64,000 nt of DNA from Candidatus Bathyarchaeota archaeon (GCA_963769425.1 CAVYLP010000003.1:160001-224000), one strand, 5' to 3'. Shown: positions 9,074 to 18,385, counted from the stretch's first letter. Notes: generated from the letters alone by a model not told the origin. Program-made: numbers and translations.

Positions 9074-9336
9074 ACGAGCTCCGCTGAGCAATCTGGACTA
9101 GGATATATTTTGCATACATACAGAGAAAACTTATGACATCCAAGGAAAGCATTAGTGATGGTGGGGAATGCTCAGCTATTGGAGAAGGTATAAAAATATT
9201 TTATGGTTAGTGAGATTCAACGATTTAAAACATCCTCACCTAAAAGCATCAACGATTATGATGAGGGTTCAATGGTTGAAAACGTCAGCAGTGATTAGGA
9301 GAATTTCGCACAGCTTTACGCCTTAGGAGGTTTAAT

Positions 9337-10011
9337 TTGGAGAGGGATCGTTATGGTATTGACTTGACGAACCTATTGTTCAGAGGCGACCCCTATCTGA
9401 GGGAATTCGACGCCACGATAGTAAGCGTGGGTGATAACTTCGTGGTCCTTGATAGGACGTGTTTCTTCCCCAAGGGAGGCGGACAAGTCGGGGACACCGG
9501 CGTCCTATCGGGAGTGAGAGTTTTGGACACGCTCAAGGAGGGGGAGGAGGTTCGACACATCCTCGAAGGGGACTATAAGTTCCTCCCTGGGCAACCTGTT
9601 CATGGTGTGATTGACTGGGATAGGCGATACAGGATTATGCGCCTCCACTCGGCTTCCCATCTTGTCTATTATGCTATGAAGGAGACCTTCGGGTTAAAAT
9701 GTGTACCAGCATCATCTGGGCTTCTTGACGATGCGAAGGATAGATCTGACTACCTATTCGACTCCCCCCTGGACAGGGTGAAGCTAGCAGAGGTGGAGGA
9801 GAGGGTTAACCGACTGATAGTCGAGGGTATACCAATAACGCACGGGCAGGAATCGGATGGAGAGAGACTCCTTTGGAGGGTAGCCCTCTTCCCACCAATG
9901 GAATGTGGGGGGACCCACGTCAGAAACACAGCGGAGATCGGGCGAATCTCCATTAAACGGGGTAGTAAACCGGGCAGGGGAAAGGAGCGTATCGAGTTAA
10001 CACTTGTCTAG
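9337..10011 (+). CDS. alaX: Alanyl-tRNA editing protein AlaX-M
   Basis: DRTCFFPKGGGQVGDTG, MRLHSASHL and ECGGTHV Zn-binding motifs. Confidence 0.9.
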   Translation: MERDRYGIDLTNLLFRGDPYLREFDATIVSVGDNFVVLDRTCFFPKGGGQVGDTGVLSGVRVLDTLKEGEEVRHILEGDYKFLPGQPVHGVIDWDRRYRIMRLHSASHLVYYAMKETFGLKCVPASSGLLDDAKDRSDYLFDSPLDRVKLAEVEERVNRLIVEGIPITHGQESDGERLLWRVALFPPMECGGTHVRNTAEIGRISIKRGSKPGRGKERIELTLV

Positions 10012-10124
10012 TTTATTGCTGAACTCGGATCTTAATTTATTGAGTTTTCTCGTATGCAATAGATCTCATGTTGGTATTCTCGGATAGGCTTCCACATCAG
10101 CTGCCTCTCAACATCGGTGAAGAT

Positions 10125-10434
10125 GTACCACTTAAGGTGACTGCACCGCAGACCCCTGTACCGTGTAGCGGTGTGATCATACCAAGCAGCGGTGATATTT
10201 CCTCGTCCCTCATACCTAGCAGCGGCGTCAATATACCGTGTAACGGAGAGTCGCTATACCATCTAGCGGAGATATTATACCTAGCAGCGGAGAGTGTTCC
10301 TCTCTCCTTATACCATGCAGCGGTGTCGTTATACCTAGCTGCGGTGTAAATTATACCATGTAGGGCGGTATTCATACCTACTAGGAGGGTATAACATTTT
10401 TTCCACATGTCTGTACCTAGTAGGAGGGTATAAC
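10125..10434. repeat. Degenerate phased repeat array, about 12 copies of RTACCnnGyAGCGG-type core
   Basis: Cores start at 10125, 10158, 10179, 10212, 10233, 10256, 10277, 10310, 10331, 10353, 10374, 10413 (spacings 33,21,33,21,23,21,33,21,22,21,39). Confidence 0.85.
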
Positions 10435-10686
10435 TTACTGGCGGGTTAAGTGTGGATTCCTTGTAGGTAGATATCGAAAAAAACCACAATTTTTTCCCCT
10501 ATCACTAGGAACGGTCTTCGCTTTGGCCCTGTTCCCCCAGTAGAAGTAGACTTTGAAATAGAGAGAACTCGAAGCAACGTAGTACGGCTAGTTGCATAAT
10601 GAAGGATGGCCCTTGATTAGATGTGTGTATGTCCCTACGATTACCTAATATAGTTGGATTATTCTAAATGAAACGCGAAAAAATCC

Positions 10687-11127
10687 TTGAAAGTATCTCA
10701 AGCCATGAGGAAAACCGTGGTGATCATCCACGAGGGCATGTCAGTCACTGAAGCATCCAAGAATATGCGCGAAAAGAATCAACCATGTGCCATCGTTTTT
10801 AGGCAGGATAAACCCTACGGCATCGTGAGTGAGCGAGATATCGCTTGGAAGGTTGCTGCAAACGGACTCGATCCCAAGAGTTTGAAGATTGAGGAAATAA
10901 TGTCGACCCCCCTCATTTCAGTTGATCCGGACGAGGATCTTGCAGAAGCAGCAAACTTGATGAAAAAACATAAGATCAGAAGATTAGCGGTGATCAGGGG
11001 AGAGACCCTGTATGGCGTCTTGACGGCCGGGGACATTATGCGCAATCTTGGCAACTACCTAGATAAAGAGGTACAAGACGTTCTCCGATACCTATGGATG
11101 CCTCGATTCTACGATCAGGTTGCATGA
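10687..11127 (+). CDS. CBS-domain pair protein
   Basis: GIVSERDI, IMSTPLISVDPD, IRRLAV...GVLTAGDI. Confidence 0.9.
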   Translation: MKVSQAMRKTVVIIHEGMSVTEASKNMREKNQPCAIVFRQDKPYGIVSERDIAWKVAANGLDPKSLKIEEIMSTPLISVDPDEDLAEAANLMKKHKIRRLAVIRGETLYGVLTAGDIMRNLGNYLDKEVQDVLRYLWMPRFYDQVA

Positions 11128-14663: not shown

Positions 14664-15410
14664 TTATAGCTTCATTCTCTGGAAGGCTAATGACCCGAGT
14701 CCAACCATCACAACCGCGAAGGCCAAGAGTACGGAGAAGTCGACTAGTAGCCCGAATCTATACGACCCAAGCATCAGACCCCTCATCGCGTCCACCCCAT
14801 AAGTCAACGGGTTAGCTAGGGTTAGTGCCAGCAGCCAGTCCGGTAGGTTGGTGAGGGGAAAGAGTGCACCTGACAGGAAGAACAGAGGGAACACGATGAA
14901 CCCCCCGATGAGGCTGAAGCCCTCACTCGACTCCATGAAGCTGCCAATGATGAGGCCAACGCTAACGAGGCCGACTAGGAGAACAATCATGTACGCGTAG
15001 ACGAGGATCAAGCCGAGCCCCACACTCACCCCGAAGAAGGGAGAGAGCAGAAGAATTATTGAAGCTTGGATCAGGCCATCTGTCGCCCCTCCGGCTACCT
15101 TCCCTAGGAAAGCCGTACTCCTCCTCACAGGCGCAACAAGCACCTCCTTCAAGAAGTCTATCTTCTTATCCCAGACTATGCTTGCACCATAGAAGACTGA
15201 GGAGAAGATCAGCGCCATCACGATTATCCCCGGGTAGATGTAGGCTTGGTAGCTGAGCCCAGCGACGCTAATCTGCGAACCCAGTCCACCGCCATATACG
15301 ACGAGCCATAGTATCGGGCTAACGATTGAGGATAAGACCCTCGACCGCTCCCGGAGGTAGACACGAACCTCACGCTCCCAGATAGCGTAGAGTCCACCAA
15401 GTTCTGTCAA
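14664..15410 (-). CDS. ABC-2 type exporter permease
   Basis: LKEVLVAPV, FLSGALFP, NPLTYGVDAMR; six hydrophobic segments. Confidence 0.9.
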   Translation of the reverse strand: MTELGGLYAIWEREVRVYLRERSRVLSSIVSPILWLVVYGGGLGSQISVAGLSYQAYIYPGIIVMALIFSSVFYGASIVWDKKIDFLKEVLVAPVRRSTAFLGKVAGGATDGLIQASIILLLSPFFGVSVGLGLILVYAYMIVLLVGLVSVGLIIGSFMESSEGFSLIGGFIVFPLFFLSGALFPLTNLPDWLLALTLANPLTYGVDAMRGLMLGSYRFGLLVDFSVLLAFAVVMVGLGSLAFQRMKL

Positions 15411-16360
15411 ATGCCACCGCCTCCTTGCTCGTGGTACTGTCGCCCCGTATACTTGAGAAAGACATCACTGAGAGTTGGGGGTCGTAGATCAACTGATTCG
15501 ACCTTTCCGATGGCTCCGAGGATCTCCTGGATATTTGAGCCAGCGTCTACGACCGTGAGCGTGATCTCCTCACCTCTCGCCTCAACTACCTTCACGTACG
15601 GGAACGATTCAAGCGCGGAAAGATTTGGCGTTTTCATACGGATCTTGATGATATCACCGCCGAGACCCCTCTTCAACTCACCCGGAGTGTCAAGCACGAC
15701 AATAGCCCCATGATCCATGATCGCAATCCGGTCACACAGCCTATCTGCCTCATCCATGTAATGAGTCGTTATGATGATGGAGAGCCTCTCCTCCTGCACG
15801 AGCCTCTCAATGTACTCCCAGATGTGCTCCCGCGTCTGAGGGTCAAGTCCAAGAGTCGGCTCATCAAGAAACAAGACCTTCGGTCTGTGTAGGAGCCCCC
15901 TCGCGATCTCGAGCCTCCTCCGCATCCCACCGGAGTAGTGCTTCAAGAGGTCATTCCTCCTATCCGTTAGGTCGACTAGCTCAAGCACCTCATCGATCCG
16001 CTGACGCCTGATAGAGTTAGGAACACCATACATGAGGGCATGCATCTTCAGGTTCTCGTAGCCAGTAAGTAGCTCATCCGAGCTAGGGTCCTGGAAGACG
16101 ATCCCGATGCTCTCCCTAACCTTACCCGGCTGCTTAACAACGTCGAAGCCGTTAACCCTCGCCTCGCCACCCGTGGGCTTCAAAATCGTGGCAAGCATAT
16201 GCAGTGTCGTAGTCTTACCTGCCCCGTTTGGACCGAGGAGACCGAAGACTTCTCCCTCATTGATCGAGAAACTCACCCCGTCGACCGCTTTGATGTTTCC
16301 TTTGTAGATCTTCGTAAGGTTACTCACCTTAACCATATCAGCGGACTCAGGTGGAGACAT
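15407..16360 (-). CDS. ABC exporter ATP-binding protein (DrrA-like)
   Basis: GPNGAGKTT, YSGGMRRR, LDEPT, TTHY. Confidence 0.92.
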   Translation of the reverse strand: MSPPESADMVKVSNLTKIYKGNIKAVDGVSFSINEGEVFGLLGPNGAGKTTTLHMLATILKPTGGEARVNGFDVVKQPGKVRESIGIVFQDPSSDELLTGYENLKMHALMYGVPNSIRRQRIDEVLELVDLTDRRNDLLKHYSGGMRRRLEIARGLLHRPKVLFLDEPTLGLDPQTREHIWEYIERLVQEERLSIIITTHYMDEADRLCDRIAIMDHGAIVVLDTPGELKRGLGGDIIKIRMKTPNLSALESFPYVKVVEARGEEITLTVVDAGSNIQEILGAIGKVESVDLRPPTLSDVFLKYTGRQYHEQGGGGI

Positions 16361-17123
16361 ATTCAGTGCGCCAACTTTGTTACCAAACCATAGTGCGAGC
16401 CATAAAGGGTTCGTTCGTTTACACTAAATGAATAGGAAGTACGTGCAGAGCCTTCATCAATCGTGAGGAGACAGAGACCTGGCTCGCAAAATAGGACCCG
16501 GATCACTTAGCCAAGAGCCTAAAAGCCCTATCAGTGCTCTTCCAGAGTAAGGCCTACTTCTACTGGAGGAACCGGGCTGCCAAGAATGATTCCTAGTGGC
16601 AGGTGCAAAAGTGATGTTTTTCCTTATTCCTACCAGCGAGGCATACGCGACCAACCAGCAAACGTGTTACTCCACCCACCGAACATCCACTCCTCCTGTC
16701 GACACCCATACGGGTGAACTCAACCTCGGATGAATCATCGCAATGGACCGGTGAGGAGTCATTAAGCAATTCTGTAAAACGCTTATACTATGCTACCGTA
16801 CGGGGGAGACTTGAAAAACGCGCCGATCCCTCAAACATCATGAATCAGGCTCTATTTCTGAGTAGTTTGATAATTCAACCTTCTCTCGGTGAGCGTATTT
16901 GGTGGAAAATTATTGGCCAACAGAAAAACGAGTATAAGGGGTTCACAAACGCACTGGAATGGATATAGGAAAACCATTGGGGTAACCATGAGTCTAATCG
17001 TTAGGCTGCTGATGAAACTCGGATCGAGATAAGGATCGACTAGGCGATGTCCTCGGGTGGAGTAGACTCAGAGAAGCCCCACGGTCAACCCCGAGAAAAT
17101 GAGTATCAGAACTTCAAGGACGT

Positions 17124-17212: not shown

Positions 17213-18385
17213 TTGAACAACATGGCCACAAAGAGTCTTTCAATCAAGTATGGTGCAGCCGCTATAGTGATGGCTCTAGCTATCATCGGTACATCCCTAT
17301 TCGTGAATAATTCGGTAACCCCAACAGGAACCGCCGTGGGGAAGGGATTAACGAACTTCATCGTCATGCTCACCGACCCGCCAACAGTTCCCTATGGAAC
17401 GACTGAGCTCAACGTGACCTACTCCAGCATACAGCTTCACGTGATTGCCAGAGATGGCACTTCGAACTGGGTGGCATCCCAGGAATCCGGCCGCGTGAAT
17501 CTACTATCACTAGTTAACGTGACGCAGACGATAGCTACACTGAGCCTACCCACAAACTCTACAGTCGACAAGCTTCAATTCACGCTCTCCTCCGCCACCT
17601 CAAATGTCAGCGGCGTAGTTTACCCAGTAACCCTACTATCGAATCAGCTGCTAATCAACATAAGATCCGTAAAGCTCAACGGCACCACGACAGGCGCCCT
17701 CATAGACCTTAGGCCGACCCTGATAGAGATCAACGCCTCCAACTCCACCGGCGGCTCCGTGAAATACTTCGTCCTCTCACCAAGCGCGACCGCTGTCGTA
17801 AAGTCGAGCGTCAACGAGACTCAGAAGAGCATCGGCTGCAGAGTCCGCCTCCAAGATAAGGAGAATAAGGAAATAGCGGATGAGTACCGCAGATCCTCCA
17901 ACAACGTCACGATCACGGATGCCAAATTCTCTGTGAAGGGAAACACCACAACCCTATCCGTCACAATCAAGAACATCGGCAAAGCCAACGCAACCCTGTC
18001 GAGCCTGACAATGAACGGCGAGTTTAACACAACCTTCTCCTGGGTCGTGAAGACACAATTCACCATGGGTAAGAACGACATGATGAGTGGAGGGAACATG
18101 ATGAAGGATCACCCCGAATCGATCCCCTTCAAGATAAGCGGTGGCAAGCTGATACCCATCTTCGGAGACAACGAAGTTGATAATGGTCTAGGCGCAGGGA
18201 AGCTGGTTATAAAGCCGGGGCAGTCAACAACCCTAACCTACACCGGTGTCCTGCAGCTCCGTAGTGATGGCCGCGGCAAGTCGCCGAGCGTCGTCGTGAC
18301 ACCGATGGTTGGAAAAGAGTACACCGTGCGCATCATGAGTACCGGAAACCAGAGCTTAAAAGTCACAGCCGTCAAGGGTACTTAA
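17213..18385 (+). CDS. Membrane-anchored, S/T/N-rich extracellular protein (DUF4382-like N-terminal domain)
   Basis: N-terminal hydrophobic anchor, MLTDPP motif, many N-x-S/T sequons, Ig-like C-terminal strand pattern. Confidence 0.65.
   Translation: MNNMATKSLSIKYGAAAIVMALAIIGTSLFVNNSVTPTGTAVGKGLTNFIVMLTDPPTVPYGTTELNVTYSSIQLHVIARDGTSNWVASQESGRVNLLSLVNVTQTIATLSLPTNSTVDKLQFTLSSATSNVSGVVYPVTLLSNQLLINIRSVKLNGTTTGALIDLRPTLIEINASNSTGGSVKYFVLSPSATAVVKSSVNETQKSIGCRVRLQDKENKEIADEYRRSSNNVTITDAKFSVKGNTTTLSVTIKNIGKANATLSSLTMNGEFNTTFSWVVKTQFTMGKNDMMSGGNMMKDHPESIPFKISGGKLIPIFGDNEVDNGLGAGKLVIKPGQSTTLTYTGVLQLRSDGRGKSPSVVVTPMVGKEYTVRIMSTGNQSLKVTAVKGT

Follow-up and report, generated by a model that had tools for sequence, protein, structure and literature searches.

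A tandem array between two host genes of a Bathyarchaeota archaeon is, on balance, probably a non-coding relic of a virus-derived cassette, in which the operator or recognition site next to a small gene, geneB, has been multiplied, each copy being a putative target of a geneB-protein dimer. The array lies at 10159–10474 of the window (the whole 64,000-nucleotide stretch of Candidatus Bathyarchaeota archaeon DNA analyzed here). It belongs to a genome-wide family of intergenic arrays, is flanked by stubs of two genes that are neighbors in an intact cassette of relatives, is built from a unit homologous to the dyad that precedes geneB there, and varies in unit number between natural populations.

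The array occupies part of the 675 bp that separate an alaX-like gene from a CBS-domain gene (Table 1) and comprises 11 same-strand (+) units at 10159–10434 and a twelfth at 10455–10474, with steps of 21–39 bp. Matches to the core TACCNNNNNGCGG numbered 11 in the 64-kb window, seven of them at 10159–10344 (+), whereas 100 shuffles averaged 1.72 and never exceeded 6, and a repeat search recovered eight copies of a 13-nt core at steps of 21, 33, 21, 23, 21, 33 and 43 bp. A weight matrix, one of the checks proposed in an earlier reading of the sequence alone, was derived from 261 units of other loci, leaving out the window array, and still revealed 11 (+) sites of at least 10 bits inside 320 bp, compared with a largest cluster of 2 in 200 block shuffles. 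The unit at 10455–10474 scored well (19.6 bits), showing that the array extends beyond 10434. That sequence-only reading had described about 12 helically phased boxes, and these units bear it out except at two places: its first box, at ~10126, scored below 8 bits and falls inside the geneB stub and hence is no unit, and the 10232 unit is a weak one, at 6.3 bits. It was also right about a higher-order repeat of ~98 bp (the 82-nt block at 10156–10237 recurs at 10254–10335 with 74% identity) and about the last two boxes, near-identical 21-mers at 10375 and 10414 that share 95% identity and lie 39 bp apart. The pseudo-palindromy that it saw in the cores holds for those last two boxes, which carry the dyad TACC-N9-GGTA, whereas most other window units have no convincing dyad, unlike the units of other arrays.

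Table 1 Features of the array locus and of the second module in the window (positions counted from the first letter of the window)
Feature	Position	Strand	Details
Flanking host gene, alaX-like tRNA-editing protein, outside the element	9337..10011	+	Pfam tRNA-synt_2c, tRNA_SAD
geneB 5' stub (pseudogene)	10029..10136	-	Reads LKWYIFTDVERQLMWKPIREYQHEIYCIRENSIN followed by a stop; begins LKWYIFTDVERQ..., read from 10136 to 10032; 34 aa
Tandem units, TACC(W)(W)G(Y)AGCGG type	10159..10366	+	Given as ten; starts 10159, 10180, 10213, 10234, 10257, 10278, 10311, 10332, 10354; steps 21-33 bp
Terminal module: unit TACCTACTAGGAGGGTATAAC, then ATTTTTTCCAC	10375..10406	+	One of 24 genuine terminal modules of the genome
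Post-terminal unit TACCTAGTAGGAGGGTATAAC	10414..10434	+	39 bp past the terminal unit (family constant); 23.2 bits
Further unit GATTCCTTGTAGGTAGATAT, then degenerate 'type-B' tail CGAAAAAAACCACAATTTTTTCCCCTATCACTAGGAACGG	10455..10520	+	
geneA 3' stub	10537..10600	-	KAYLYW-type motif, here CAAAGTCTACTTCTACTGG = K-V-Y-F-Y-W; no intact ORF
Flanking host gene, CBS-domain protein, outside the element	10687..11127	+	Pfam CBS 3.5e-26
Second module of the family	16440..16830	+	geneA stub ...SKAYFYW; type-B boxes at 16588 and 16625; degenerate geneB-like start

In four other metagenome runs, labelled peat and sediment, contigs connect the alaX-like gene to the array, for example X1 record 3 (9976–10286, five differences) and X4 record 23 (9300–10231), and variants among them skip 65, 44 or 39 bp, each the summed length of whole units. 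Because independent contigs, albeit short-read ones in which collapse within the repeat is possible, carry the array at the same locus, it is no assembly artifact, the outcome that the sequence-only reading had named as a refutation, and the number of units differs among natural populations. The array is non-coding, as had been argued from the sequence: a step of 22 or 23 bp puts the next unit in another frame. A 130-aa minus-strand ORF across the array reads the unit in differing registers (...AARYN..., ...PLLGM..., ...ALHGI...), and, in gene orientation, just ~9 of the genome's 23 arrays are free of stops from end to end. The unit has TAG in two of six frames, so its makeup alone predicts long ORFs across arrays of this kind. 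We tried ORF 10097–10489 (−) as a gene and rejected it: it spans the array with the units in different registers. Both it and ORF 10068–10349 are spurious and should not be annotated as genes.

At the genome scale, the TACC..GCGG variant matched 129 times, the window array being its single cluster, while the last two window boxes belong to a genome-wide box family with the core (T/A)CC-TAG-TAG-(C/G). Intergenic gaps at many loci hold long same-orientation arrays of 21–24-bp units: 23 loci had at least five core matches on one strand and five were shorter, giving 28 modules, all intergenic. They share one plan, namely a geneA 3' stub, a unit, GGTATAAC-T-run-CCAC, 2–19 units and a geneB 5' stub, with 138 of the unit steps counted across the genome measuring 21–24 bp. 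The terminal module is constant, consisting of the last unit, GG(T/G)ATAACG(A/T)TTTT(T/C)CC(A/G)C, 9–10 nt and one more unit. Its regular expression matched the genome 27 times, with 24 genuine cases including window 10375–10434; the other three, without neighboring units, were judged by eye. Arrays fall into the subtypes TTCCTAGTAGCTGGAAC, GTACCCAGTAGGGTGGTAC and TTCCTAGCAGCGGGG (the window type) and a ~200-bp 'type B' with inverted partners; they are internally homogenized into these subtypes, and identity between copies is 72–95%. The window module is among the most divergent, with just its tail aligned to other copies by blastn, and its type-B tail is 72–76% identical to dispersed copies at C3:378900, C3:264022 and C6:520688. 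The second module of the window, between ORFs 15407–16360 (−) and 17213–18385 (+), has type-B boxes scoring 18.8 and 15.9 bits and a geneB-like start of another subtype. Orientation relative to the neighboring large genes is mixed, with about half of the arrays co-directional and about half convergent, which indicates that the arrays do not belong to those genes.

Linkers between units vary in sequence and length and have drifted to 30–40% identity, while the core persists: at C4:107357–107629, for example, 12 cores occur in 273 bp and the core is kept in every consecutive unit. This pattern in the sequences suggests that selection acted on the core through much of the history of the arrays, with the proviso that units were recognized by this very core, which biases the conservation profile inside arrays. 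Fixed element ends were not found; the left ends of the geneA stubs vary between copies. A tRNA gene lies less than 500 bp from 2 of the 28 modules and less than 2 kb from five or six, at most a mild excess over chance that may hint at integration beside tRNAs. The distance to a tRNA gene is 418 bp for the module at C1:235085–235162 and ~170 bp for that at C6:323244–323350 (L160:1245–1351), and a copy in metagenome DNA (L205) likewise abuts a tRNA.

Outside this genome, the exact core-pair pattern occurred in none of 40 relatives, many of them fragmented assemblies from which repeats may be missing, so the amplified form is known from this species-level lineage only. In 11 relatives, the alaX orthologues have different neighbors, without array or boxes. 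Matches to the core-pair pattern were found in at least 112 stretches of a 185,579-species collection, nearly all single chance matches, and in 35 stretches of IMG/VR, nearly all single; the terminal-module pattern had no match in IMG/VR. Contigs of Thermoflexales/Thermoflexia MAGs (L052, 132–207; L061; L105, 1501–1620) carry bacterial arrays in which four to six palindromic boxes, TTCCTAGTAGGAA, recur at exactly 22 bp ahead of a terminator-like hairpin; core and period are as here, in an unrelated phylum. A 27-kb viral contig of IMG/VR (L240, 3001–3090) contains four intergenic TCCTAGTAGG boxes at 23–24-bp steps, directly upstream of a small gene beginning MVNYSIAMMANP... A full-text literature search found no paper on intergenic tandem repeats in Bathyarchaeia.

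The gene remains beside the arrays point to their source. Beyond the array, on the opposite strand, the geneB leader encodes M/L-R-K-Y-V-F-T-E-I-E-R-R-R-L-x-x-W-L, and such N-terminal geneB fragments were found at no fewer than (at least) nine loci, the array-linked copies being truncated to 10–64 aa. In the window, this stub has TTA where the start codon should be and lacks 1 nt that other copies have. Its assignment draws on an hhalign comparison with the family alignment (12 columns, 58% identity, E 1.9e-4, probability 48%), on a nucleotide alignment with four other leaders and on a position relative to the array that is the same as elsewhere. At the module end opposite the geneB stub are C-terminal geneA fragments of 26–62 aa, with the geneA end motif CAAGGCCTACCTCTACTGG at 10537–10555 in the window; intact geneA of relatives (490 aa) ends ...LSQTKAYLYWCRDW. 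By tblastn, this genome has no intact geneA, only stubs beside arrays. Both flanking stubs are dead in the window, as at most loci. The sequence-only reading had stated that no cognate binder is adjacent, which does not hold: the array abuts a dead geneB 5' stub on the opposite strand, and intact relatives carry the homologous site just upstream of geneB.

Relatives of the same order (G029, G028 and G027) retain the cassette in the order Laminin_G_3/YQBQ-like tail protein, 153 aa, 87 aa, geneA, geneB, geneC and large terminase (TerL). There, geneA encodes an ABC-ATPase plus GNAT (ABC_tran 2e-11; phrog_293 1e-33), a 70–100-bp spacer separates it from geneB (81 aa), and geneC (85 aa) is helical; the terminase matches Terminase_6N (1e-9), Terminase_6C (1e-7) and phrog_2 (3e-36). 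A defense-system search of the cassette with PADLOC gave only generic P-loop matches for geneA and none for geneB. One copy of this region (L233, G028:C2, 3995–5571) has geneA split into ORFs of 234 and 225 aa, with geneB, geneC and terminase that look intact. The genome studied here has a geneB–geneC–TerL trio of its own at C2:93412–95193 (L153, L218). After it come cellular genes, cytochrome c assembly among them, instead of portal or capsid genes, so the trio is itself a remnant, an orphan packaging module. A second terminase gene is located at C6:24259–25410. The geneB profile found the family in 14 of the 40 relatives, a patchy occurrence as expected of mobile DNA. In the parts covered, a paper on viruses of Bathyarchaeia describes tailed forms that have a large terminase, with no mention of a small terminase subunit or such repeats (PMC10848311).

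In these relatives, the spacer has an A/T-rich promoter-like element and, 4–40 bp before the geneB start, one dyad box, and the terminal module of the window is homologous to the A/T-rich element of the geneA–geneB spacer. More widely, in other genomes and in metagenomes, the upstream DNA of geneB contains one inverted repeat with lineage-specific arms: GGAATTACAaGCTACcTGTAATTCC; GATACTACTgctgTAGTAGTATC; GATACAaccacTGTATC; TTATGAGAAGCTACTACTCATAA; GGTTAAAGtggCTTTAACC. An inverted repeat scoring at least 7 occurred in 12 of 36 geneB upstream regions compared with 6.3% of shuffles, a count that overstates independence, because several of the 36 regions are near-duplicates. Many of these dyads have a GCTAC center, as does the unit here (GTTCC-A-GCTAC-TA-GGAAC in gene orientation), and the dyad accompanies geneB whether geneA or geneC lies upstream, and also without TerL downstream. 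On the gene strand, GGAAAAAACGTTATAC is a candidate promoter element, and the minus strand of the terminal module, GTGGAAAAAATGTTATACC, resembles an archaeal BRE/TATA, to go by its letters. A congener (G002) has the unamplified layout of a unit, an A/T-run TAAAAATATTTTTTTTCGC, two units, a Shine–Dalgarno sequence and ATG. Also in this congener is a dead stub module (L223, G002:C19:20800–22500), with a geneA end from the KAYLYW motif, a three-unit spacer and a geneB with an in-frame stop; being unamplified, it indicates that stub modules disperse without amplification. Tandem Repeats Finder (TRF) revealed no arrays upstream of geneB in 55 loci outside this genome. With a single dyad elsewhere and no upstream arrays at those loci, an operator-like box was tandemly multiplied in this lineage, and dispersal of the stubs began earlier.

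The most likely binder of the boxes is a protein of the uncharacterized geneB family, as judged from gene position and structure models. We searched for loci of geneB relatives with a five-row alignment as query. The geneB profile matched 179 representative clusters at E ≤ 1e-3 in a 1.84-billion library. In this genome, full-length copies occur at C2:95193 (79 aa, with a different upstream site), C3:87514 (86 aa), C3:131963 (130 aa) and C4:352123 (92–95 aa). The last is the sole full-length geneB of the matching subtype: it is 74% identical over 38 aa to an array-linked stub, has all seven near-invariant residues and has type-B boxes upstream. A 588-aa protein (P0033) contains eight separate stretches that match the geneB profile and looks like a tandem-domain form. 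No recognizable DNA-binding family or fold emerged for geneB from Pfam, PHROG, PDB, Foldseek, the ESM Atlas or PADLOC. Specifically, there was no match in Pfam or PHROG (ribbon-helix-helix Pfam families, 0 of 66 members; geneC had no PHROG match either), none among PDB sequences (best E 0.11), no fold match in Foldseek (best E 7) and no usable match in the ESM Atlas. Comparison with Terminase_7 gave E 0.079 for one member and matches for 2 of 66 members (best E 0.05), below any threshold. IMG/VR yielded no geneB relative, and a word-index search found a single one.

An AlphaFold2 model of geneB (pLDDT 83) has a seven-residue N-terminal segment, a helix at 8–20 and a long helix at 25–57. Its segment-helix-helix arrangement recalls ribbon-helix-helix proteins, a resemblance between the model and that fold, not a result. 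Modeled as a homodimer, geneB scored 0.78 versus 0.00 for the best of three controls, a mark reached by 20 of 30 proteins whose solved structure is a pair of one and the same chain and by 1 of 23 whose solved structure is a single chain, counts that hold only roughly since our own alignment was used for the dimer model. The runs agreed in at least 97% of contacts, partner pLDDT was at least 88 and the interface includes residues 1–6 of both copies. A small symmetric dimer of this kind would suit a dyad site.

These observations can be assembled into a tentative course of events. Tandem duplication in this lineage would have multiplied the single box into arrays of 2–19 units with a period of ~22 bp, and modules of array plus gene stubs would have dispersed to ~28 intergenic sites. 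Each unit would be a putative site for a dimer of the geneB family, and the ~22-bp period, two helical turns, would set successive dimers on one face of the DNA, allowing cooperative coating. In the intact cassette, the first half-site appears to overlap the BRE/TATA-like element (GGAAAAA-TTATAA type), and a dimer bound there would silence geneB along with the packaging genes, flag the DNA for the terminase, or do both. Since both stubs in the window are dead, the array has no gene in cis to control and can act only in trans; the trans-acting protein could come from the C4:352123 copy or from an incoming virus. The presence of a ~0.5-kb piece at 28 places could reflect selection for a trans effect (as decoy or packaging entry), spread driven by recombination, or preferential survival during provirus decay.

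Several other explanations of the array can be weighed against these results. The arrays could be a neutral or selfish satellite, tandem repeats that slippage or unequal exchange expanded within decaying remnants of viral DNA and that have no present binder or function, which we regard as possible, if unlikely. Such an origin would accord with stubs that are dead at most loci, unit numbers that differ between populations, homogenization into subtypes and the lack of the amplified form in all 40 relatives; it is at odds with consecutive units that keep their core while linkers drift, with the terminal module and its 39-bp spacing being kept at 24 places, and with the persistence of a full-length geneB of matching subtype with all its near-invariant residues. 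Rather unlikely in our estimation, and overlapping with the favored explanation, is that the boxes are packaging-recognition sites of the pac or cosB kind, with geneB as the small terminase or a DNA-recognition partner and the dispersed arrays as pseudo-packaging sites or terminase decoys. In lambda-type genomes, a cos or pac site lies between the tail/lysis block and the packaging genes, and here, too, the spacer sits between a tail/lysis-like block and packaging genes, with geneB and geneC directly preceding the large terminase; geneC, however, and not geneB, abuts TerL, and the weak Terminase_7 matches (E 0.05–0.08), which would favor this role, are sub-threshold. Moreover, geneB keeps the dyad even at loci with geneC ahead of it and no TerL behind, which fits a geneB operator better than a genome-end site. 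The trans-acting option can also be put more strongly, as a host or resident satellite that keeps more than 300 copies of the viral box in ~28 arrays, either as decoys for the small DNA-binding protein of an infecting virus or as entry sites at which a relic terminase packages host DNA. We consider this stronger version improbable; as decoys, the arrays would disturb viral gene control or DNA packaging by soaking up the viral protein.

An element acting at the RNA level seems very improbable to us. In that scenario, the BRE/TATA-like terminal module would drive a minus-strand transcript spanning the units, which would be a long geneB 5' leader or, now, a non-coding repeat RNA serving as a sponge or being processed. 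The promoter-like element upstream of the units in gene orientation would suit such a transcript, as would the T-run after the last unit on the other strand. The RNA analyses speak against it: folding of the array was no better than shuffles on either strand (z −1.02 and −0.01), stems were not preserved across unit subtypes, and Rfam returned nothing near threshold over the locus (two matches with E 0.55 and 7.5, far below gathering scores) and, over five long arrays, one tRNA and nothing else. There remains the list of candidates raised from the sequence alone, comprising a replication origin with iterons, a parS-like centromere, a nucleoid-organizing platform and a CsoR/RcnR operator, which together we hold to be extremely improbable. 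Their general idea of a protein-binding platform or multi-operator site is favored by the evidence, insofar as the boxes are bound as proposed, whereas the specific candidates fail. Direct ~22-bp repeats with helical phasing and the existence of a CsoR-family gene in the genome had made them attractive; the 28 loci, the lack of an adjoining initiator or par gene and the array-free alaX loci of the 11 relatives stand against them. An archaeal oriC (ORB plus orc1/cdc6) was rejected because the only Cdc6_C match lies at C1:24396–24674, on another contig, and the units have one orientation, and an iteron origin because, helical direct repeats notwithstanding, the array is flanked by an alaX-like gene, a CBS gene and a dead stub of 34 aa and is one of 28 loci. 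For a segregation centromere, neither parA/parB nor segA/segB is among the immediate neighbors. The single Trns_repr_metal (CsoR-family) gene, at C3:127818–128057 (L234, 94.7 bits), is 42 kb away and unlinked to any array; it lies ~4 kb from a geneC–geneB pair at C3:131619–132355. CRISPR was discarded, in agreement with the view that the spacers are too short, since the whole period is 21–33 bp with linkers of 4–13 bp, compared with repeats of 24–48 bp and spacers of similar length. A MITE does not fit either, as copies differ in where their geneA stub ends on the left and no terminal inverted repeat was seen by eye.

If the boxes bind the geneB protein, as the amplified-operator explanation predicts, the arrays would offer a ready-made and highly multivalent target for studying an uncharacterized family that heads the packaging module of Bathyarchaeia viruses, a group without a cultured virus–host system. 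A viral control site that runs away into dozens of chromosomal arrays would bear on the origin of tandem repeats in archaea and on whether hosts can turn copies of a viral operator against the virus. Should the arrays prove inert, annotation would still gain an explanation for ~28 long 'empty' intergenic regions.

Among known systems, cosB of phage lambda has the sites R1–R3, bound by gpNu1, and an IHF site. It shares with the layout here repeated short sites in the spacer that separates the last of the late genes from the small gene opening the packaging module, immediately upstream of the latter; it differs in having three sites, as opposed to up to 19 direct units and dispersed relics in a host chromosome, and geneB has no significant similarity to any small terminase. 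Cox of P2 and Apl of 186 are phage proteins of ~80–90 aa that act as repressors or architectural proteins on same-orientation, helically spaced boxes. They are comparable to geneB in size and in their runs of boxes, with no relation found in sequence or fold. Ribbon-helix-helix regulators such as Omega of pSM19035, ParR/parC and MetJ use iterated operators and share with the geneB model a small dimer, a short N-terminal segment plus two helices, and tandem sites; however, helix 2 of geneB (25–57) is much longer, there is no family or fold match to ribbon-helix-helix proteins, and partition genes are absent. Plasmid iterons are likewise ~22-bp direct repeats, two helical turns apart, beside the gene of the presumed binder, but here there is no Rep-type initiator, and the repeats occur at 28 loci with dead stubs. 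MITEs and REP/BIME elements also occur as tens of intergenic copies in one genome with mosaic subtypes, whereas the present modules have no terminal inverted repeats or fixed ends and carry stubs of two protein genes. The array is kin to iterated operators and terminase-recognition repeats, and what is unusual is its runaway amplification and dispersal and its tie to an uncharacterized viral family.
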